NCBI GenBank assembly: GCA_031459875.1
Contig: JAVKHQ010000002.1
Location: 41,965 to 105,964 of the forward strand
Reading direction: 5' to 3'
Length of the DNA stretch: 64,000 bases
DNA from: Candidatus Fervidifonticultor sextus
Lineage (GTDB): Bacteria > Sysuimicrobiota > Sysuimicrobiia > Sysuimicrobiales > Humicultoraceae
The position numbers were made by a program, and so were the translations under genes. The notes beneath the pieces were generated by a model. The model ran no database searches and was not told the DNA's origin. It was given only the letters and a program-made list of their open reading frames with translations. Of the stretch, positions 442-54,423 are shown piece by piece. Position 1 is the stretch's first letter. Each line of letters starts with the position of its first letter.

Positions 442-585
442 CCTGACCTGCGCTCAGCAAAACACGAACGCCCGGGATCCACAGACCTCCGGGCGCAACA
501 CACATCCGGAGCGGCATTCGGGCTGACCACCGCGGCACCCATAAAGCCACCGCGGCCCGGCCACCCAAACCCGGACTCCACGTCC

Positions 586-727
586 GACCTTCTCCCATCC
601 GGACTATACCGTCGGCCCCGGAGTTCCACCGGATCAGCCCCGCCGCACGCGCGCCGAGGGTCGCGGGCTATTACCGCCGATCGGGAATTGCCGGCACATC
701 CGGCCGGCTCACCCTGCCCCGAAGGTC
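586..727 (-). ncRNA. FMN riboswitch (RFN element) with an extra hairpin in L2
   Basis: Minus strand GACCTTCGGGGCAGGGTGA...ATTCCCGATCGGCGGT...AGCCCGCGA...GATCCGGTG...CCGGGGCCGACGGTATAGTCCGGATGGGAGAAGGTC matches the RFN consensus; upstream of ribD. Confidence 0.95.
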
Positions 728-748
728 TGCTATTCGGTTGACAGGTGT

Positions 749-3395: not shown

Positions 3396-4190
3396 CTACG
3401 GCCGCCGGGCGGGAAACCGGCCGGCCAGCGCGGCCTGGACGATGGCCTTGACCTCTGGGTGGAAATCCTTCCGGAGGACCCACTGCAGGAAGCCGCGATC
3501 TCGCTCCGCGACCTCGCGCAGCCGCCGGCCGCGGATGCCCTCCGGTCCGAAGGCAAAGACGGCTTCTCCACCCTCCCAGAGGAACTTGCCTGTGGCATCC
3601 ACGGCGTCGGGATCGCGCGGCTTCGGGGTGAAAAACTCGGCCAGTTCCTGCGGGGTCCGCGGGAGGTCGGGGTAGGTGGCCAGCTGCGCGTCCAGGACCT
3701 CCAATGACGCCTCCACGTCGGCCCTGGCACTGTGGGGCTCGGCCAGATCCTTCCCGCAGTAATACCTGTAGGCGGCCGTCAGGTCACGGGGCACCTTGCG
3801 GTGGTAGATCACCTGGGCGTCTACGACCGCGCGGCCGGTCATGTCCAGGCGCAGCCCCGCCAGCGCCAGTTCGCGGTGGAGGATCGGCAGGTCGAACCGA
3901 TGGATGTTGAATCCGGCCAGGTCCGCATCGCCGATGAAGGCCAGCAGGTCGCGCGCGATCTCCGGAAACCGCGGCGCGTCCGCCACGTCGGCGTCGGTGA
4001 TCCCGTGGAAACGCGTGGATTCCGGCGGGATCGGCACCCCGGGGTGGACCCGGCGCGTCAGCGTGTCGCGGCGGCCGTCGGGATGGACCTTGATGAGCGA
4101 GATCTCCACCACGCGGTCACTCGCGGGGTTGACGCCGGTGGTCTCCACGTCGAGGAAGACGATGGGGCGCTGGAGCCGCAGGGTGCGCAC
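3396..4190 (-). CDS. DEDDh 3'-5' exonuclease (DnaQ/epsilon-like)
   Basis: FLDVETTG, HGITD, GFNIHRFDL, HSARAD. Confidence 0.9.
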   Translation of the reverse strand: MRTLRLQRPIVFLDVETTGVNPASDRVVEISLIKVHPDGRRDTLTRRVHPGVPIPPESTRFHGITDADVADAPRFPEIARDLLAFIGDADLAGFNIHRFDLPILHRELALAGLRLDMTGRAVVDAQVIYHRKVPRDLTAAYRYYCGKDLAEPHSARADVEASLEVLDAQLATYPDLPRTPQELAEFFTPKPRDPDAVDATGKFLWEGGEAVFAFGPEGIRGRRLREVAERDRGFLQWVLRKDFHPEVKAIVQAALAGRFPARRP

Positions 4191-4227
4191 AGCATGTGGG
4201 GTTCGCGTGGCGGAGGCCGGGCTCCTA

Positions 4228-5307
4228 CTAGAAGTGCGCGATGAGCCGGTGGAGGTAGCCCAACCCCGCGCTCTGGAGCAGCACGACGGCGCCGGCGACG
4301 GCGGCCAGCCGGAGCAGGCGCCGCGCGCGGATCGACTCCGCCCTCGCCTGCGATCCGGATCCAGCCCCTCCTGCGATGGCCGGGAGCCGGCGCGCCGCCA
4401 CCGTCAGACCGGTCAGGCACGTCAGCAACGCCAGGACGACCCCGTGCTTGGCAAACAGCAGCATGCCGTAGCCCGCCCCGAACGGGACGCGTCCGAACTG
4501 CGCCAGGCGGCGCTGCAGGCTGCCGGATCGCCAGTCCACCTCGACGGGCATGTTGTAGAGCGAGTTGTACACCCCCGTGGCCGCCAGTAGCGCCACCGCG
4601 ATCCAGGAGACGGCGACGAGCCGGCGCAGTGCGGAGGCGGCGGGAGGCTGTCCCGCGCCCCCCGTCGCGCGCAGCGCGGGCCACACGAACCCTGCGATCA
4701 GGAGCCCGCTCACCCACACCGCGCCGACCATCAGGTGCACCGTCAGCACCCCCAGGTTGACCCACTCGCGGCCGCCCAGGCGCACCCCGGCGGCCGTCGC
4801 GATGACCTGGAGCGTCTCGCGCCGGCCTGCGCCGGCCTGCCCGGTCACGTGCACCTCGAGGGTCTTGCGCACCGGGACGACGGGGCCGCTGACTTCAACG
4901 TCCAGCGTCCAGCGCGCCGGATGCAGGAATGTTACCGCGCCGGCATACAGTCCTGGGACGTACGGCGATTCCTCGAACGTCAGCGTGGGCAGGATCATCC
5001 GGTGGGGTTCGGCCATGCTCGGCGTCACCCGCACCGTGGCGTGGCGGATGGGCTCGCGGCTGTCCTGATCCAGGAGGCGCACGGACACCAACCAGGTGAT
5101 CTGTTCTGTCGGCTGCGTCAGGACGCGGACCTCAGGGACCGGCCGGCCGAAGCGGTGCGCCAGCGCGGGAGCGCCGGCGAGGAGGCCGCCTGCCAGCGCG
5201 ACCGCCAGGCCACCGGCCAGAGCCGCCAGCAGCCTTCCGGTCAGCCAGCGGTCGCGGCGGACGCCTACGGACTCCAGATGCGAGTCCCGGGCCGGTAGGA
5301 CGCCCAC
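4228..5307 (-). CDS. Membrane protein with N-terminal YtkA/FixH-like Ig domain and CopD-like domain (start uncertain)
   Basis: Signal peptide ending ALA-H; PSMAEPHRM...PGLYAG; HLMVGAVWVSG, TGVYN, YGMLLFAKH. Confidence 0.7.
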   Translation of the reverse strand: MGVLPARDSHLESVGVRRDRWLTGRLLAALAGGLAVALAGGLLAGAPALAHRFGRPVPEVRVLTQPTEQITWLVSVRLLDQDSREPIRHATVRVTPSMAEPHRMILPTLTFEESPYVPGLYAGAVTFLHPARWTLDVEVSGPVVPVRKTLEVHVTGQAGAGRRETLQVIATAAGVRLGGREWVNLGVLTVHLMVGAVWVSGLLIAGFVWPALRATGGAGQPPAASALRRLVAVSWIAVALLAATGVYNSLYNMPVEVDWRSGSLQRRLAQFGRVPFGAGYGMLLFAKHGVVLALLTCLTGLTVAARRLPAIAGGAGSGSQARAESIRARRLLRLAAVAGAVVLLQSAGLGYLHRLIAHF

Positions 5308-48904: not shown

Positions 48905-48933
48905 TTGACAGGGCGGCGTGGCCTGGGTACCAT
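48905..48933 (+). promoter_or_regulatory. Sigma70 promoter for fluoride riboswitch 1
   Basis: TTGACA-17 bp-TACCAT. Confidence 0.8.
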
Positions 48934-48950
48934 GAGCACGAACTGCATGA

Positions 48951-48998
48951 GGCGATGAGGCTCGCCCCAACTGCCGTCACCGGCTGATAGCCTCTACC
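48951..48998 (+). ncRNA. Fluoride riboswitch (crcB motif) 1
   Basis: GGCGATGAGGCTCGCC-CCAACTGCC-GTCACC-GGCTGATAGCCTCTAC: P1, pseudoknot GAGGC/GCCTC and GCTGAT core. Confidence 0.9.
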
Positions 48999-49023
48999 CG
49001 AGCGGGTAGGGGCGATTTCTTTT
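48990..49023 (+). terminator. Intrinsic terminator overlapping the aptamer 3' end
   Basis: GCCTCTACCC-GAGC-GGGTAGGGGC followed by GATTTCTTTT. Confidence 0.8.
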
Positions 49024-49066: not shown

Positions 49067-49954
49067 ATGACCGACACCTGGACCGCGATGCTGATGGGGA
49101 TGCTCATCTTCGCGGCGGCGCTCGTCTCCGTCGAGGTCGGGATCTCGGTGGCGCTCATCGAGATCATGGTGGGCGTGCTCGCCGGCAACATCCTGGGGCT
49201 GCACACGACTCCCTGGATCGACTTCCTGGCCGGCCTCGGCGGCATCGTCCTGACCTTCCTGGCCGGGGCTGAGGTCGATACCGACATGCTGCGGGAGCAG
49301 TTCACAGCCAGCCTCTGGGTCGGCGGGCTCTCGTTCCTGCTGCCGTTCCTGGCGGCCTGGGGGTTCGCCCTGTGGGTGCTGGACTGGACGCCGTCGGCCT
49401 CCAGACTCGCCGGGGTCGCGCTCTCGACGACCTCGCTGGCGGTGGTCTATGCCGTGCTGGTCGAGACCGGCCTGACCCAGACGCCGCTGGGCAAACTGAT
49501 CATGGCCAGCACCTTCATCACCGACTTCGGTACGGCCGCGGCGTTGAGCATCCTGTTCGCCCGGCCGACGCCGTGGATCCTGGCATTCCTGGCAGTCTCG
49601 GCGGTCATCATCGCGGCCATGCCGCGGCTGCAGCCCTGGTTCTTCCGGCGGTACGGCAACCGGATCATCGAACCCGAAATCAAGGGGGCGTTCGCCGCCC
49701 TGCTGGTGTTGTACACCACCCTCCTGATGAGCACCGGTCTGACCTTCGGGACGATCTCGTCCCTCTACGGCCTTCACGCGGGGATCATCGACCGGACGCA
49801 GTTCTCGCTGTTGGTGACCGCGGTCATCCTGAGCGCGGTGGTGCCGACGGTCATCGCCCAGCGCGTCTGCGATCCGCGGCGAGCAGGCCTCCGGCCGCAG
49901 CCTGCGCCCGCTGTAAGGTTCGCACCGTCAATGGAAGGCGGGGAGGACTCATGA
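49067..49954 (+). CDS. CPA2 cation:proton antiporter, apparently internally deleted
   Basis: LTFLAGAE, LSTTSLAVVY, LLMSTGLTFGTISS; only 295 aa. Confidence 0.8.
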   Translation: MTDTWTAMLMGMLIFAAALVSVEVGISVALIEIMVGVLAGNILGLHTTPWIDFLAGLGGIVLTFLAGAEVDTDMLREQFTASLWVGGLSFLLPFLAAWGFALWVLDWTPSASRLAGVALSTTSLAVVYAVLVETGLTQTPLGKLIMASTFITDFGTAAALSILFARPTPWILAFLAVSAVIIAAMPRLQPWFFRRYGNRIIEPEIKGAFAALLVLYTTLLMSTGLTFGTISSLYGLHAGIIDRTQFSLLVTAVILSAVVPTVIAQRVCDPRRAGLRPQPAPAVRFAPSMEGGEDS

Positions 49955-50391
49955 TCAGGCACATCCTTGTGGCGCACGACGGCTCCGAGGAAGCCCGGCG
50001 GGCCGTCGAGGTAGGGGTGGACCTGGCCCTGCGCTACGGCGCCAGGGCGACGCTGCTCACGGTCATCCAGCACCCGGCCTACGCGGCGACGGTCGGAGAG
50101 GTCCAGGAGGCCGACACCGAGAAGCGGACCTTCGCGGAGCGCCTCCAGCGGGAGGCGATCGAGGCGGCCCGGCTGCGCGGTCTGGACATGGCGGCAGCGG
50201 TCGTGCCGGGGCACCCGGCGGAGGCCATCGTGGACTACGCCCAGAGCCACGACGTGGACCTCATCGTGATGGGACACCGCGGCATGTCGAACCTGCGCCG
50301 CATTCTGGTCGGCAGCGTCGCGGACCGGGTTGTCGACCACGCCCCGTGCATGATCCTGGTCGTCCCGCGCGGGAGGCACCGTCGAGGGTAG
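49951..50391 (+). CDS. Universal stress protein
   Basis: ILVAHDGS, GHPAEAI, DLIVMGHRG...GSVADRV. Confidence 0.92.
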   Translation: MIRHILVAHDGSEEARRAVEVGVDLALRYGARATLLTVIQHPAYAATVGEVQEADTEKRTFAERLQREAIEAARLRGLDMAAAVVPGHPAEAIVDYAQSHDVDLIVMGHRGMSNLRRILVGSVADRVVDHAPCMILVVPRGRHRRG

Positions 50392-50396
50392 AAGAC

Positions 50397-51587
50397 GTGG
50401 CTGCACCCTCAAGCCCGGCTCCGCGCGCAGGTCTCCCAAGGGACACCGCCCTGAGGTTTGTCGTCCTGCTGGGAGCCGTCAGCCTGTGTGCCGACGCGAC
50501 CTACGAGGGAGCCCGGAGCATCACGGGACCCTTTCTCGCGATCCTCGGTGCTAGCGGCGCGGCCGTCGGCCTGGTGGCGGGGCTGGGGGAGTTGGTCGGC
50601 TACGCGCTCCGCCTGGTCTCCGGCTACTGGAGCGACCGCACGGGACGGTACTGGGCGATCACGCTGTGGGGCTACGCGCTCAACCTGGTGGCCGTCCCCC
50701 TCCTGGCCCTCGCAGGCCAGTGGCCGGTGGCCGCGGCGCTCATGATCGCCGAGCGAACCGGCAAGGCACTGCGCACGCCCGCCCGCGATGCCATGCTGTC
50801 CCATGCCACCAGGAGCATCGGGCGCGGATGGGGTTTCGGCCTGCACGAAGCCCTGGATCAGATCGGAGCGGTGCTCGGCCCCCTGGTCGTGGCGGCGGCC
50901 CTCCACGTCCACGGCAGTTACCGGCTGGGCTTCGCCGTGCTGCTGATCCCTGCGCTCCTGGCATTGGGTATCCTGGCGGCCGCGCGCCTGCTCTACCCTC
51001 GTCCCAGAGACCTCGAGGTGGGTCCCCCGGCGCTGGACGCCTCCGGATTCCCGCGCGCCTTCTGGCTCTACCTCGCCGCGGTGGCGCTGGTGGCGGCCGG
51101 GTACGTGGATTTCCCGCTCATCGCCTACCACTTCGAGAAGCGGGCGGTCGCCCCGGCAGGCTGGATTCCCATCTTCTACGCCGTCGCCATGGGGGTGGAC
51201 GCGCTCGCCGCGCTGCTCTTCGGCCGGATCTTTGACCGGATCGGGATCGGGGTTCTGGCGGTCGTGTCTCTGGTCTCCTCGCTGTTCGCGCCCCTGGTCT
51301 TCTTGGGGGGATTCCACTTTGCGCTCGCCGGCATGGCGCTCTGGGGGGTGGGCATCGGCGCGCAGGAGTCGATCATGCGGGCCGCCGTGGCCGGCATGGC
51401 GCCCGCACACCGGCGCGGATCCGCCTACGGCCTCTTCAACGCGGGGTATGGCGTGTTCTGGTTCCTGGGCAGTGCGCTGATGGGGCTGCTCTACGATGTG
51501 TCGATCAGGTCACTGATCGTCTTCTCGGTGGCGACGCAACTGGCCTCCATCCCCCTGATCCTCGCGACGAGACGGGCCGTCCAGTGA
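50397..51587 (+). CDS. MFS transporter
   Basis: DATYEGARSI, ERTGKALRTPARD, GFGLHEALDQIGA, QESIMRA. Confidence 0.9.
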   Translation: MAAPSSPAPRAGLPRDTALRFVVLLGAVSLCADATYEGARSITGPFLAILGASGAAVGLVAGLGELVGYALRLVSGYWSDRTGRYWAITLWGYALNLVAVPLLALAGQWPVAAALMIAERTGKALRTPARDAMLSHATRSIGRGWGFGLHEALDQIGAVLGPLVVAAALHVHGSYRLGFAVLLIPALLALGILAAARLLYPRPRDLEVGPPALDASGFPRAFWLYLAAVALVAAGYVDFPLIAYHFEKRAVAPAGWIPIFYAVAMGVDALAALLFGRIFDRIGIGVLAVVSLVSSLFAPLVFLGGFHFALAGMALWGVGIGAQESIMRAAVAGMAPAHRRGSAYGLFNAGYGVFWFLGSALMGLLYDVSIRSLIVFSVATQLASIPLILATRRAVQ

Positions 51588-51611: not shown

Positions 51612-52343
51612 CTACCCCCGCCACACCATCCCGGGCGCGCCGCTGACCTTGTGCAGGACGCGGCGCCAGGCCGTGCGCTCGCCGTCGCTCATCGGTTCCT
51701 CCCGGAACCGATAGTCGTGCTTGCGCCAGAACTCCTCAAGGTCGCGCACCAGGCGCTCCATCAGCCCGCGCTCGGTTTCCAGCAACCACCGTAGCGACGC
51801 CTCTCTGCCCACATGGCGCATGACGGCCACGAGGTGCCGGAGGCAGAGCCCCAGGCTTCCTTCGTAGCGGGTGCGGAAGTCCTGGTCGGGCAGGGCCTGC
51901 GCGGTGGCCCACGCGTACCGGTCCTCGCCGTCCCACTGGTCGCTGCAGGCAGGACAGGGCCGCCGCGGTTGTAGCCAGGCGCCGACGGCCCGGGCCAGCG
52001 ACCCGCGCCGCGCCCGGCTCCGGGGCAGCGCCCGCCGTCCGGCGGCGACCAGCGCGGGTGCTCGGGCCAGGTCGACGAAGGCTCGGTGAAACTCGTCCAG
52101 CAGATGCCGGTAGACGATCGCGATGCCGGTGGCGCAGTCGAAGATGGTGGACAGTTGCCAGGCGTGGGCCGGGCAGAAGCCGCGCGCGTCGATAAACGCC
52201 GTGCGCGACCACGGGTCATTCACCCGTTCGTAGAGAAAGCCGTCGAGGAAGCGCCGGGTTCCGGTCACGCAGAGGTGGCAGATGGCGCAGTGCTGCGCAT
52301 CAAGCGTCTCATAGACGGCATGGAACAACTGATCTCGCTGCAT
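51612..52343 (-). CDS. DUF6062-like Cys/His-rich protein
   Basis: Duplicated module CAIC...YERVND...GFCPAH and CPAC...GLCLRH; RKHDYRF near the C-terminus. Confidence 0.8.
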   Translation of the reverse strand: MQRDQLFHAVYETLDAQHCAICHLCVTGTRRFLDGFLYERVNDPWSRTAFIDARGFCPAHAWQLSTIFDCATGIAIVYRHLLDEFHRAFVDLARAPALVAAGRRALPRSRARRGSLARAVGAWLQPRRPCPACSDQWDGEDRYAWATAQALPDQDFRTRYEGSLGLCLRHLVAVMRHVGREASLRWLLETERGLMERLVRDLEEFWRKHDYRFREEPMSDGERTAWRRVLHKVSGAPGMVWRG

Positions 52344-52359
52344 GCCTCAGGTGCGCCCC

Positions 52360-52791
52360 CTAAGGTCCCTCTTCGCCCGCGGGCCGGTCAGACGGCGCGT
52401 CCGCGCCTCCCGTTCCCCCTTCACGGTCGGTCAGGGCCTGCCGCAGACGATCCCGCCGCGCGCGCTGCTGGCGGATCGAGACCTCAAACTGGCGGTTGGA
52501 GCGCTCGAGTCCGGTGAGATTCAACCTCAGCGTGCGGATGGCCTCGTCGGCGATGTAGGCGCGCTGGCGCAGGACCGCCATCTCGGCGCGGGCAGCCATC
52601 CACTCGTTCTGGATCTGCTCGATGGTCAGCGACGGCGCCAGCATGGCGTCAGCGCCGTAGGCCAGCAGGATCTTGACGGCCTCCTGGGGGGTCCAGCCCT
52701 TCATAGCGATGAAGGCGTCGAGGCGGGCCCGCAGACGGTCGGGGAGGCGCACTGCGATCCGCTCAAGGGATGGGAAGATCACCTCACCCAT
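52360..52791 (-). CDS. Hypothetical protein: RHH-like N-terminus plus coiled coil
   Basis: IAVRLPDRLRARLDAFIAMKGWTPQEAVKILLAYG then a heptad-rich helix; start overlaps the upstream stop; good RBS. Confidence 0.7.
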   Translation of the reverse strand: MGEVIFPSLERIAVRLPDRLRARLDAFIAMKGWTPQEAVKILLAYGADAMLAPSLTIEQIQNEWMAARAEMAVLRQRAYIADEAIRTLRLNLTGLERSNRQFEVSIRQQRARRDRLRQALTDREGGTGGADAPSDRPAGEEGP

Positions 52792-53284
52792 GGAATCCCT
52801 TCCCTCCCCTGGCGGGCAACAGGCTGCGAAACCAGTCTCGGAAGGCACCCCTGCGGCCACGTGGAGGGTCGGCACCGGCGGTCTTTCCGTCGGCCTCCTG
52901 CAGGCGAGTCATCAGCGAAGTGCTCTCATCCCGCAGCGAGCGCATGGTTCGCCGGTTCTGCTGCAGTGCGGCGCCCAGGGCGCGGACGGTCTCGCCCAGT
53001 TCGTGGACGATTTTCTCCGCGGCAATCGTCCGGGCACGCATCGAGACCAACAGTGCCTGGGTCTCGCGCCGCTTCAGTTCCTGCCGCTCGACCTCCGCCT
53101 CCTGACCCGGGTGGCCTTCCAGCGCCTTCCATGCCGCCTCGTCCCGGAGAAACCGGTCGAGGCCCTGCTCGAGCAACCACGGCAGCCCATCATCGGGCTC
53201 TCGCCCGGCGGCATCCAGGGCCCGCCGGATCGTCGCCCAATCCTCTGCCAACAACTCGACCTCAATACTCCCGGGCACCCCCAC
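52784..53284 (-). CDS. Hypothetical protein: RHH-like N-terminus plus coiled coil (start approximate)
   Basis: IEVELLAEDWATIRRALDAAGREPDDGLPWLLEQG then a long coiled coil; first ORF after the riboswitch terminator. Confidence 0.7.
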   Translation of the reverse strand: MGVPGSIEVELLAEDWATIRRALDAAGREPDDGLPWLLEQGLDRFLRDEAAWKALEGHPGQEAEVERQELKRRETQALLVSMRARTIAAEKIVHELGETVRALGAALQQNRRTMRSLRDESTSLMTRLQEADGKTAGADPPRGRRGAFRDWFRSLLPARGGKGFHG

Positions 53285-53330
53285 GCTGCCACCGTCCTGC
53301 GTGCCGACGCTGCAGACCGTGCGCCGAAGC

Positions 53331-53366
53331 AAAAAGCCCCTACCGACTCTGCCAGTCAGTAGGAGC
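53331..53366 (-). terminator. Intrinsic terminator of fluoride riboswitch 2
   Basis: GCTCCTACTGACT-GGCAG-AGTCGGTAGGGGC-TTTTT. Confidence 0.85.
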
Positions 53367-53408
53367 TATCAGCCTCGCGTCACAAGGCGATCGGCGAGCT
53401 CCATCGCC
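53359..53408 (-). ncRNA. Fluoride riboswitch (crcB motif) 2
   Basis: GGCGATGGAGCTCGCC-GATCGCC-TTGTGACGCGA-GGCTGATAGCTCCTAC; pseudoknot GGAGC/GCTCC covaries relative to copy 1. Confidence 0.9.
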
Positions 53409-53428
53409 TATGTACTTGTCGTACATTT

Positions 53429-53457
53429 ATCCTAAATCGCATCGGGCGGCTTGTCAA
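53429..53457 (-). promoter_or_regulatory. Sigma70 promoter for fluoride riboswitch 2
   Basis: TTGACA-17 bp-TAGGAT. Confidence 0.8.
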
Positions 53458-53517: not shown

Positions 53518-54423
53518 CTACGCCTCCCGGCCCACCTCCGCCACTACGATCCCGACCAGAATCAACAAGGCACCAAACGCCTGCCGGCCGCTCAGGACTT
53601 CTCCCAGCAGGAGATACGCGGCCACTGCGGCGGCCACGGGCTCAAAGGTGAACATCAACCCCGTGTGTGAGGGGCTCGTGAACCGCTGCGCCCAGGTCTG
53701 GATCACGAGCGCACCCACGGTGGCGGTGGTCGCCATGAAGAGGATCATCCCCCAAATGCCCGGCGGCGCAGCGACCAGCGCGCGCAGGGGGCGCTCCACG
53801 GACGCCGCCAGCGTACTGAGCGCCGCCACCGAGACCACTTGGGCCGCCGCGAAGGCCAGGGGGTCCAGTGCCGGGCCCAGGCGCCCCACCAGCACAATGT
53901 GCAGGGCGAAGCAGAAAGCGCACCCCAGCACCAGCAGGTCCCCCAGATTGGCGCCGATCGGGTCGTCAAGCGTGAGCAGCGCGAGTCCGGCGCTCGCAGT
54001 GGCGATGCCGGCCCAGACCCGGCCCCGGGGGCGGCGCCGCAGCCACACCGACGCGATCACCGGCACCAGGACGACCGAGAGCCCGGTGATGAACGCGGCC
54101 TTCGAGGCCGTGGTCAGCCGCAATCCGACGGTCTGCAGCCCATACCCGAGGAAGAAGACCACGCCGACCGCGGCGGCCTGTATCCACGGGCGCGCGGGCA
54201 GCGCGGCCCGCCGCGCGGGCGCCACGGCGATCATGAGGACGGCCCCGATGGTGAAACGCGCCGCCAGGTAGGCGAACGGCGGAAGCGCCGCCAGCACCAT
54301 CTTCCCCAGCGGGAAGGTCAGGCCCCAGACGGCAGCCACGGCGAGCAGCGAGAGGTCAGCGGCCAGACGGAGCCGCACCGATCCGCCTGGCCGCAGCGAT
54401 ACGGCCGACATGATGCTCCCCAT
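53518..54423 (-). CDS. DMT/EamA family transporter
   Basis: VWGLTF, LQTVGL..TTASKAAFIT, GDLLVLGCA, FEPV. Confidence 0.9.
   Translation of the reverse strand: MGSIMSAVSLRPGGSVRLRLAADLSLLAVAAVWGLTFPLGKMVLAALPPFAYLAARFTIGAVLMIAVAPARRAALPARPWIQAAAVGVVFFLGYGLQTVGLRLTTASKAAFITGLSVVLVPVIASVWLRRRPRGRVWAGIATASAGLALLTLDDPIGANLGDLLVLGCAFCFALHIVLVGRLGPALDPLAFAAAQVVSVAALSTLAASVERPLRALVAAPPGIWGMILFMATTATVGALVIQTWAQRFTSPSHTGLMFTFEPVAAAVAAYLLLGEVLSGRQAFGALLILVGIVVAEVGREA

Follow-up and report, generated by a model that had tools for sequence, protein, structure and literature searches.

Introduction

Microbial fluoride resistance is explained mainly by two exporter families and by extra copies of the enzymes that fluoride inhibits. 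Riboswitch cargo has proven a reliable guide to function earlier, as when the crcB motif led to the channel Fluc. According to the excerpted text of PMC11139923, fluoride riboswitches (RF01734) are transcriptional ON switches in front of genes for CrcB/Fluc, CLC-F, Na/H antiporters, enolase, pyrophosphatase, universal stress proteins (USP) and transporters of the major facilitator superfamily (MFS). The cargo named in the same excerpts comprises exporters, antiporters, pyrophosphatase, enolase, enzymes of the haloacid dehalogenase type, formate hydrogen lyase and chorismate mutase.

Here, a stretch of 64,000 nucleotides of Candidatus Fervidifonticultor sextus (GCA_031459875.1, contig JAVKHQ010000002.1, positions 41,965 to 105,964 of the forward strand; referred to as the window) was analysed, in which a fluoride riboswitch precedes three genes, ORF1, ORF2 and ORF3. 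ORF1 and ORF2 belong to a family that is labelled RCC in this study, due to its ribbon-helix-helix (RHH)-like head, long coiled coil and basic tail, and ORF3 belongs to the family DUF6062 (PF19538). The riboswitch class is well known; the RCC/DUF6062 cargo is not. With a probability of roughly 60%, RCC and DUF6062 represent a conserved gene pair of the fluoride regulon in many lineages, located behind an anti-termination switch.

The window organism is a member of the Candidatus Sysuimicrobiota, and its ORF3 is 91% identical to that of Ca. Fervidifonticultor octavus, the nearest named record. DNA of the window was also present in hot-spring metagenomes (four DNA runs of one study), with no RNA run listed. 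Geothermal waters are often rich in fluoride. The paper on this phylum (PMC11604079) reports enrichment cultures, and its main text contains no mention of fluoride or of a riboswitch.

The riboswitch leader

The unit consists of the following elements:

53429..53457, minus strand: sigma-70-type promoter with TTGACA (53457-53452), a 17-base spacer and TAGGAT (53434-53429); consensus scan, 10 of 12 matches
53353..53417, minus strand: fluoride riboswitch aptamer (RF01734, crcB motif); Rfam covariance model, full model 1-64
53330..53367, minus strand: intrinsic terminator/expression platform with stem 53367-53335 and T-run 53334-53330; terminator scan and minimum free energy fold
52784..53284, minus strand: ORF1, RCC paralog A, 166 aa, with acidic RHH-like head, coiled coil and basic amphipathic C-terminal tail
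52360..52791, minus strand: ORF2, RCC paralog B, 143 aa, with RHH-like head and one long helix (57-129)
51612..52343, minus strand: ORF3, DUF6062 protein, 243 aa, with two CxxC...CxxH modules

The model RF01734 matched the window at 53353-53417 (minus strand) with 41.2 bits (gathering score 34; E 5.6e-8; model positions 1-64 of 64). This match encloses the crcB-type aptamer that an earlier note on this DNA had located at 53359-53408, and the scans likewise returned, on the minus strand, the TTGACA-17-TAGGAT promoter and the overlapping terminator with its U-tract described there. Two RF01734 matches in all occur in the 3.05 Mb draft genome, both within the window, in which Rfam matches number three. 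A covariance model of our own (R1), which was built from 36 aptamers gathered in this analysis, scored the operon aptamer (53353-53417) at 63.4 bits. As a control, R1 was applied to the 64 kb window and detected no aptamers other than the two already known, at 63.4 and 61.2 bits; the next match reached 17.3 bits. The latter (4157-4234, plus strand; E 0.021), at which Rfam is silent, is probably a chance match.

Both pseudoknot strands are present in the window aptamer (5' loop GGAGC and 3' strand GCUCC), and the RNAalifold consensus of the 36 aptamers is exactly this GGAGC/GCUCC pseudoknot helix. The 3' strand of the aptamer doubles as the 5' arm of the terminator, whose stem comprises 14 pairs, seven of them G-C, followed by TTTTT. 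Since the shared 3' strand also pairs with the GGAGC loop in the pseudoknot, aptamer and terminator are mutually exclusive. The fold of the leader has an energy of -76.6 kcal/mol (z -3.7 versus shuffles). In an alignment of 24 of the 27 orthologous leaders, from which three near-duplicates were omitted, the aptamer-terminator design and the stem are kept in all 24, with 12 pairs predicted and three of these showing changes on both sides. TTGAC stands at the matching position in 24 of the 27 leaders (counted by eye). The 6.1 kb scanned contain three promoter-like sites versus 0.5 expected from shuffles, and seven terminator-like sites versus 1.6 expected.

The sequence models and this conservation support a fluoride-dependent anti-termination switch ahead of the three-gene operon. 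The RNA started at the promoter would fold into the fluoride aptamer. As long as fluoride is absent, the aptamer's 3' strand would join the terminator and transcription would end approximately 45 bases ahead of the genes; when fluoride is present, the aptamer would keep this strand and RNA polymerase would continue into ORF1-ORF2-ORF3.

Between the -10 box and the aptamer, ATGTAC-N5-GTACAT (53410-53426, minus strand) was considered as a candidate operator. It is a perfect 6-base inverted repeat with a 5-base spacer and forms a 5' hairpin in the leader. The candidate was rejected, because the orthologous leaders do not keep the palindrome, which is absent from the 26 others.

Approximately 60 bases separate the riboswitch promoter from the end of an upstream gene for an EamA-family transporter (53518-54423, minus strand), which lies outside the unit and has a promoter-like site of its own (54451-54422). 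A flavin mononucleotide (FMN) riboswitch (RF00050) is located at 583-730 (minus strand; 92.5 bits versus a gathering score of 66.2, full model).

Organization of the operon

The mechanical ORF of ORF1 spans 52784-53332 and begins at a TTG codon (53332). Most likely, translation in fact starts at GTG 53284, because this codon aligns with the starts of the orthologs. The ATG of ORF2 overlaps the stop of ORF1 by 8 bases, and 16 bases separate ORF2 from ORF3, so that the three minus-strand ORFs are indeed as tightly spaced as the earlier note had stated. The terminator scan found no terminator-like site between or within ORF1-ORF3. The note had also seen neither a membrane exporter nor a recognisable enzyme among the three, and Pfam and NCBIfam revealed no match to a transporter or enzyme family. 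ORF1 and ORF2 would be translationally coupled.

Distribution and association with the riboswitch

ORF2 is encoded in 26 of the 94 genomes of the phylum, and RF01734 was found in 42 of the 94, among them 25 of the 26 genomes with ORF2. These phylum counts include one unpublished genome (G024; one RF01734 and one CrcB match); without it, RF01734 occurs in 41 of 93 and CrcB in 5 of 93. When members of one genus are compared, ORF2 is likewise missing from those genomes that have no switch. Just upstream of ORF1, on the same strand, an RF01734 match is present in 24 of 25 loci (that of the window excluded), 12 of these matches with at least 34 bits and 12 with 23-33.9 bits (E 0.05 or better). When 20 ORF1-ORF2 loci were widened to approximately 12 kb, R1 detected the aptamer in all of them, including one missed by Rfam, and the gene order switch-ORF1-ORF2 was found throughout (20/20). 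In these widened loci, DUF6062 follows on the same strand in nine and faces the unit in three, and in eight it is absent from the stretch examined. The next genes after the ORF1-ORF2 units usually encode an MFS transporter, and a second aptamer heads a unit for a CPA2-like exchanger, a USP and a MutS_V protein.

In nine loci of one family (L107, L109-L116; f5), two tandem aptamers are located on one strand. The first (28-35 bits with Rfam) precedes ORF1-ORF2(-DUF6062-MFS), and the second (54-58 bits) precedes CPA2-like-USP-MutS_V. In two further loci (L117 and L118, in G038 and G039), the ORF1 aptamer is located directly behind two tRNA genes, with no TTGAC box within 70 bases upstream, and transcription may enter from the tRNA unit.

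For DUF6062, 77 loci were obtained by a pattern scan in which each species was represented by a single genome, and all were searched with Rfam at the gathering score. A fluoride aptamer lies upstream on the same strand, within 4 kb, in 28 of them, at a distance of up to 250 bases in 17, of 366 bases in one, of about 900-1100 bases in seven and of 1.6-3.2 kb in three; one more locus, L008, has a match below the gathering score (31.9 bits). Given one or two aptamers per genome of a few megabases, far fewer than 1% of loci should contain one within 4 kb by chance. According to the record labels, the 28 loci cover approximately 11 phyla: Sysuimicrobiota (filed as Armatimonadota), Omnitrophota, UBP3, Thermodesulfobacteriota, Aerophobetes, Ignavibacteriales, Sumerlaeota, Clostridia, Acidobacteriota, Eisenbacteria and Spirochaetota. 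An RCC gene is present in 10 of the 77 loci. The mechanical ORFs of the DUF6062 loci were clustered and representatives were scanned against Pfam, which gave the following neighbours:

MFS transporter: 10 loci
USP: 9 loci
enolase: 9 loci
zinc-ribbon-HEAT protein: 8 loci
metallophosphoesterase: 7 loci
CPA2-like exchanger: 6 loci
MutS_V protein: 5 loci
pyrophosphatase: 4 loci

In seven loci of Chloroflexota and Nitrospirota (L012, L013, L015, L021, L033, L066 and L067) without an aptamer at gathering score, DUF6062 is still located beside enolase, pyrophosphatase, MutS_V, USP or MFS genes, and these may be fluoride-type clusters under other control. In Sumerlaeota (L043) and Ignavibacteriales (L062), the ORFs between riboswitch and DUF6062 were considered as RCC-like genes and rejected as unrelated; one of this set encodes an H+-pyrophosphatase-like membrane protein.

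When 1.84 billion representative proteins were searched exhaustively with a profile for RCC, 96 proteins were retrieved at E ≤ 0.001, of which 28 at E ≤ 1e-10. The weaker matches form a broader family of like build, with an acidic head and often a basic tail: of 48 distant members, 46 have a head of negative net charge, and in 41 the net charge of the last 25 residues is positive. These distant members match no Pfam family, coiled-coil matches lying below the cut-off only. With 15 distant RCC proteins as queries, a metagenome scan gave 80 loci, in which aptamers were searched with R1 (E ≤ 0.01). A match upstream on the same strand was obtained in 52 of the 80, at a distance from the estimated RCC start of up to 200 bases in 37, of 201-1000 bases in five and beyond 1 kb in ten. 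RCC is single-copy on the matched strand in all 80 loci, and DUF6062 occurs in 37, mostly directly adjacent. The other neighbours include a pyrophosphatase-like protein, NUDIX, enolase, a phosphatase of the phosphoglycerate mutase type and an Na/H exchanger with USP and MFS. The genes around RCC and DUF6062 (enolase, pyrophosphatase, Na/H exchanger, USP, MFS, MutS_V, NUDIX, CrcB) are classic fluoride-regulon genes.

One metagenome contig (L201:113-2868) carries in a row a fluoride aptamer, a HEAT-repeat protein, RCC, CrcB and a DUF190-CBS protein, so that RCC shares one operon with the canonical fluoride channel. On four freshwater-sediment contigs (L136, L131, L154 and L159), RCC is followed by a prenyltransferase-like alpha-alpha-toroid protein and a pyrophosphatase-domain protein of approximately 500 aa; we know of neither as cargo of a fluoride switch.

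The neighbourhood survey confirmed that homologous operons carry the riboswitch (28/77 DUF6062, 24/25 ORF1-ORF2 and 52/80 distant RCC loci). It bears on the explanation that the link to fluoride is incidental and that the genes form a lineage-specific stress cassette or one resembling toxin-antitoxin systems, in support of which the weak similarity of the ORF2 head to RelB antitoxins can be cited. This is strongly disfavoured and extremely improbable: lineages that are not related show the same association, with the genes in differing order, and within genera the presence of ORF2 goes along with that of the riboswitch. Furthermore, no toxin-like partner was found. The 20 widened ORF1-ORF2 loci contain no toxin family, and in the window the neighbours are the paralog and, as third gene, DUF6062.

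ORF1 and ORF2 as members of the RCC family

Neither ORF1 nor ORF2 matched a Pfam or NCBIfam family above the cut-off, RHH families included. The profiles of their orthologs matched each other (hhalign probability 93%, E 3.5e-7, 144 columns), and they are therefore paralogs. The description in the earlier note, two RHH-like/coiled-coil paralogs followed by a DUF6062 protein, agrees with this value and with the PF19538 match of ORF3 (60 bits). Coiled-coil Pfam matches of RCC (DUF3450, SlyX, tropomyosin and others) all remained below the cut-off and were read as composition. DARPin matches of the ORF2 profile covered one short motif and were put down to chance.

The AlphaFold2 model of ORF2 (pLDDT 83) has an extended segment (1-17), helices 18-31 and 35-54 and a single helix 57-129. 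Foldseek placed mostly RHH proteins at the top of its list for this model (NikR, ParG, Arc, PutA, AmrZ and antitoxins; rmsd 1.3-2.5 Å over 40-48 residues; best E 0.65). Additionally, the ORF2 profile matched the RHH domain of RelB among the sequences of the Protein Data Bank (PDB; E 0.025), and among 63 RCC members RHH_5 was matched by six (best E 4.1e-5) and RelB by four. The head of ORF1 carries a net charge of -6 to -12 in 9/9 orthologs, with Glu or Asp at the outward strand positions. According to the ortholog alignment, the strand of ORF2 is basic, with outward arginines, and is accompanied by an invariant Gly-Trp-Thr turn. The C-terminal basic amphipathic stretch of ORF1 shows a hydrophobic moment of 0.61-0.86, which ranks with the highest values along each protein, and resembles the tails by which some peripheral membrane proteins are targeted to the membrane.

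The pairing of ORF1 with ORF2 was covered by complex prediction in three runs with three controls. An ipSAE of 0.78 was reached in 3/3 runs, the best of the three controls reaching 0.00; the contact agreement between runs was at least 92% and the partner pLDDT at least 84. The pass mark is reached by 116 of 157 solved complexes and by 2 of 215 mismatched pairs, and as our own alignments were used these counts are rough. In the predicted interface the N-terminal strands are paired (ORF1 residues 5-16 with ORF2 residues 6-17), the head helices are packed and the long helices form a parallel coiled coil. The prediction supports a heterodimer of ORF1 and ORF2. This parallel heterodimer would consist of an intertwined acidic RHH-like head, a coiled-coil stalk of approximately 70 residues and the basic amphipathic tail on ORF1.

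The likeness to RHH proteins leads to the main rival explanation, in which ORF1-ORF2 would be a fluoride-induced RHH transcription factor for second-tier control or for feedback on the cluster, with DUF6062 as its cofactor or target. The Foldseek list of ORF2 consists almost wholly of RHH DNA binders (1.3-2.5 Å, 40-48 residues), RHH_5 and RelB are matched by some family members (6/63 and 4/63) and RelB by the ORF2 profile, the strand of ORF2 exposes arginines next to the invariant turn, and the predicted dimer pairs both N-terminal strands. However, no Foldseek match reached E 0.001, the window proteins match no RHH family, the head of ORF1 is acidic in all nine orthologs including its outward strand, as are 46 of 48 distant heads, and orthologous leaders do not share the sole palindrome that lies close to the promoter (ATGTAC-N5-GTACAT). 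A transcription factor is therefore regarded as unlikely. Classical DNA binding by RCC is doubtful, because the RHH-like head is acidic. The basic amphipathic tail of ORF1 likewise argues against a repressor of the classical DNA-binding type. From the heteromeric DNA-binding or scaffold complex that the earlier note had suggested, the heteromer is supported by a prediction with controls, and DNA binding has become doubtful.

ORF3 as a member of the DUF6062 family

ORF3 matched the Pfam family DUF6062 (PF19538) with 60 bits (cut-off 27) over profile positions 17-238 of 243. Its modules consist of C19, C22, C57 and H60 and of C130, C133, C167 and H170. In an alignment of 69 members, C19, C22 and C167 are invariant, and C57, H60, C130, C133 and H170 are kept in at least 90%. 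The N-terminal and C-terminal halves of ORF3 are homologous (hhalign 97.6%, E 4.2e-12, 82 columns), and the protein is therefore a tandem of one CxxC...CxxH module. The AlphaFold2 model is all-helical (pLDDT 92.8, pTM 0.86), with each CxxC and CxxH at the start of a helix. A comparison with the PDB by Foldseek yielded no convincing solved relative (best E 0.42), and among the 48,161 chains compared by VIA-align the highest Z was 4.8, none being at least 5. Zinc anti-sigma domains are not among the structure matches listed for DUF6062. According to the protein atlas, the DUF6062 fold also occurs at the C-terminus of dynamin-like GTPases.

In the DUF6062-anchored loci, the gene is found in tandem in eight and as a fused double in three. 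The fused doubles (L025, L027 and L035) have 511-546 aa and four CxxC...CxxH modules; in L027 and L035 they are located directly behind a fluoride aptamer and ahead of a zinc-ribbon-HEAT protein.

ORF3 would be a helical protein with a duplicated Cys3His site, in which two structural metal ions, presumably zinc, are probably bound. Alternatively, DUF6062 might be a redox or iron-sulfur protein that repairs or replaces a metalloenzyme poisoned by fluoride, with RCC as its assembly or targeting partner. Eight nearly invariant Cys/His residues in two modules, the tight adjoining of DUF6062 and RCC and the frequent neighbourhood of extra fluoride-sensitive enzymes (enolase, pyrophosphatase, metallophosphoesterase) would fit such a protein. 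This alternative is nevertheless quite improbable, as CxxC and CxxH at helix starts with one His per site generally read more like structural zinc, no solved fold or enzyme was matched by Foldseek or VIA-align, and no cofactor family was matched by ORF3 in Pfam.

The companion operon and the absence of exporters

A second riboswitch unit on the plus strand converges on ORF3 (genes at 49067..51587):

48905-48933, plus strand: promoter TTGACA-17-TACCAT; consensus scan
48942-49003, plus strand: second fluoride aptamer; RF01734 42.8 bits, R1 61.2 bits
48990-49013, plus strand: terminator with T-rich tail (unit to 49023); terminator scan
49067-49954, plus strand: CPA2-like Na_H_Exchanger; PF00999, E 1.1e-22
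49972-50391, plus strand: USP; PF00582, E 5.5e-33
50346-51587, plus strand: MFS transporter (mechanical ORF); PF07690, E 8e-31

In relatives, the CPA2-like, USP and MFS genes share one operon with ORF1-ORF2 or with DUF6062. The CPA2-like exchanger of the window comprises 295 aa versus 405-420 aa in relatives. As tblastn places both halves in one frame with approximately 100 residues missing, it looks like an in-frame shortened copy, which may be non-functional.

CrcB (PF02537) and CLC (PF00654) are absent from the draft genome of the window organism (96% complete). Among the 94 Sysuimicrobiota genomes CrcB was found in six and CLC in 14, and 20 of the 26 ORF2-bearing genomes, which are drafts, contain neither.

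Proposed function

RCC/DUF6062 and the facing antiporter-USP-MFS operon would together form the fluoride response of this organism, whose genome shows no Fluc (CrcB) or CLC. For the role of RCC/DUF6062 a tentative proposal is made: the proteins might act as a membrane-proximal adaptor or scaffold that does not bind DNA, and might aid the induced transporters or shield a fluoride-sensitive target. More doubtful is the farther-reaching possibility that they represent an exporter-independent arm of fluoride tolerance, in which a membrane-proximal complex with the MFS and CPA2-like transporters replaces the missing Fluc/CLC-F.

Several points weigh against the assignment of RCC and DUF6062 to the fluoride regulon and against the role proposed for them. 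First, half of the ORF1-ORF2 leaders score below the Rfam cut-off. At gathering score, 49 of the 77 DUF6062 loci, mostly of Chloroflexota, are without an aptamer (six of them have fewer than 600 upstream bases), and among the 80 distant RCC loci 19 are without an R1 match and nine more have fewer than 250 upstream bases. R1 was built from aptamers of the same lineages and its calibration is rough; because it was trained on related aptamers and many of the contigs are near-identical and come from one series, the metagenome counts overstate independence. Furthermore, the absence of CrcB and CLC rests on draft genomes, which cannot prove absence. With regard to the proteins, no more than 15 of the 48 distant RCC members show the hydrophobic-basic tail motif, and the pass of the ORF1-ORF2 complex may owe something to its likeness with solved RHH dimers. 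In addition, the RHH fold is typical of DNA-binding repressors and the strand of ORF2 carries arginines, and DNA binding would be possible.

Significance

The fluoride sensor class, which is validated, points, across many phyla, at two families without an assigned function, one of them uncatalogued, and the carriers of RCC/DUF6062 analysed here mostly lack both exporters. As riboswitch cargo has been a reliable guide before, RCC and DUF6062 are concrete candidates for new fluoride biology that are cheap to test. As such candidates they have a bearing on geothermal ecology and on the engineering of microbes that must tolerate the fluoride from organofluorines. If the farther-reaching reading is true, they would stand in for the missing Fluc/CLC-F channels in lineages like this hot-spring phylum.

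DUF6062 is named in no paper according to a full-text literature search, and for the combination of 'fluoride riboswitch' with 'ribbon-helix-helix' the same kind of search retrieved a general review only; the gene table of Baker et al. 2012, which lies outside this search, may bear on the novelty. The present analysis newly defines RCC as a family and adds its near-constant link to the switch, the predicted dimer, the pairing with DUF6062 and the absence of known exporters in most carriers.

Comparison with known systems

Like other fluoride riboswitch operons, the unit of the window has an aptamer above the cut-off and a terminator on the 3' strand of the aptamer, and it faces an antiporter-USP-MFS cargo. 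Unlike the operons in the excerpted text of PMC11139923, its cargo belongs to two families that are not listed there, one of them without a Pfam entry, and unlike in known fluoride riboswitch operons the genome is without Fluc and CLC. The FRM operon of Enterobacter cloacae (PMC5533749) is likewise a multi-gene fluoride-resistance unit with a fluoride riboswitch, for which enolase, pyrophosphatase and USP are mentioned in the excerpts of that paper; in contrast to the window, neither RCC nor DUF6062 is evident in these excerpts.

ORF3 is a full-length member of PF19538 with both CxxC...CxxH modules. The entry records no function, and beyond it the present analysis adds the riboswitch link, the internal duplication, the tandem and fused copies and the pairing with RCC.

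With RHH proteins that carry extensions (ParG, MatP, NikR and RelB-type antitoxins, all among the matches of the profile and structure searches), RCC would share a strand-helix-helix head of approximately 45 residues, predicted to form a strand-paired dimer, and a dimerising helical extension. It differs from them by its acidic head, by the lack of a family-level sequence match and of an evident toxin or operator, and by its stalk, predicted to be a single parallel coiled coil of 70 residues with a basic tail. Moreover, unlike RHH proteins, RCC occurs here as an obligate pair of paralogs and elsewhere as a single copy.

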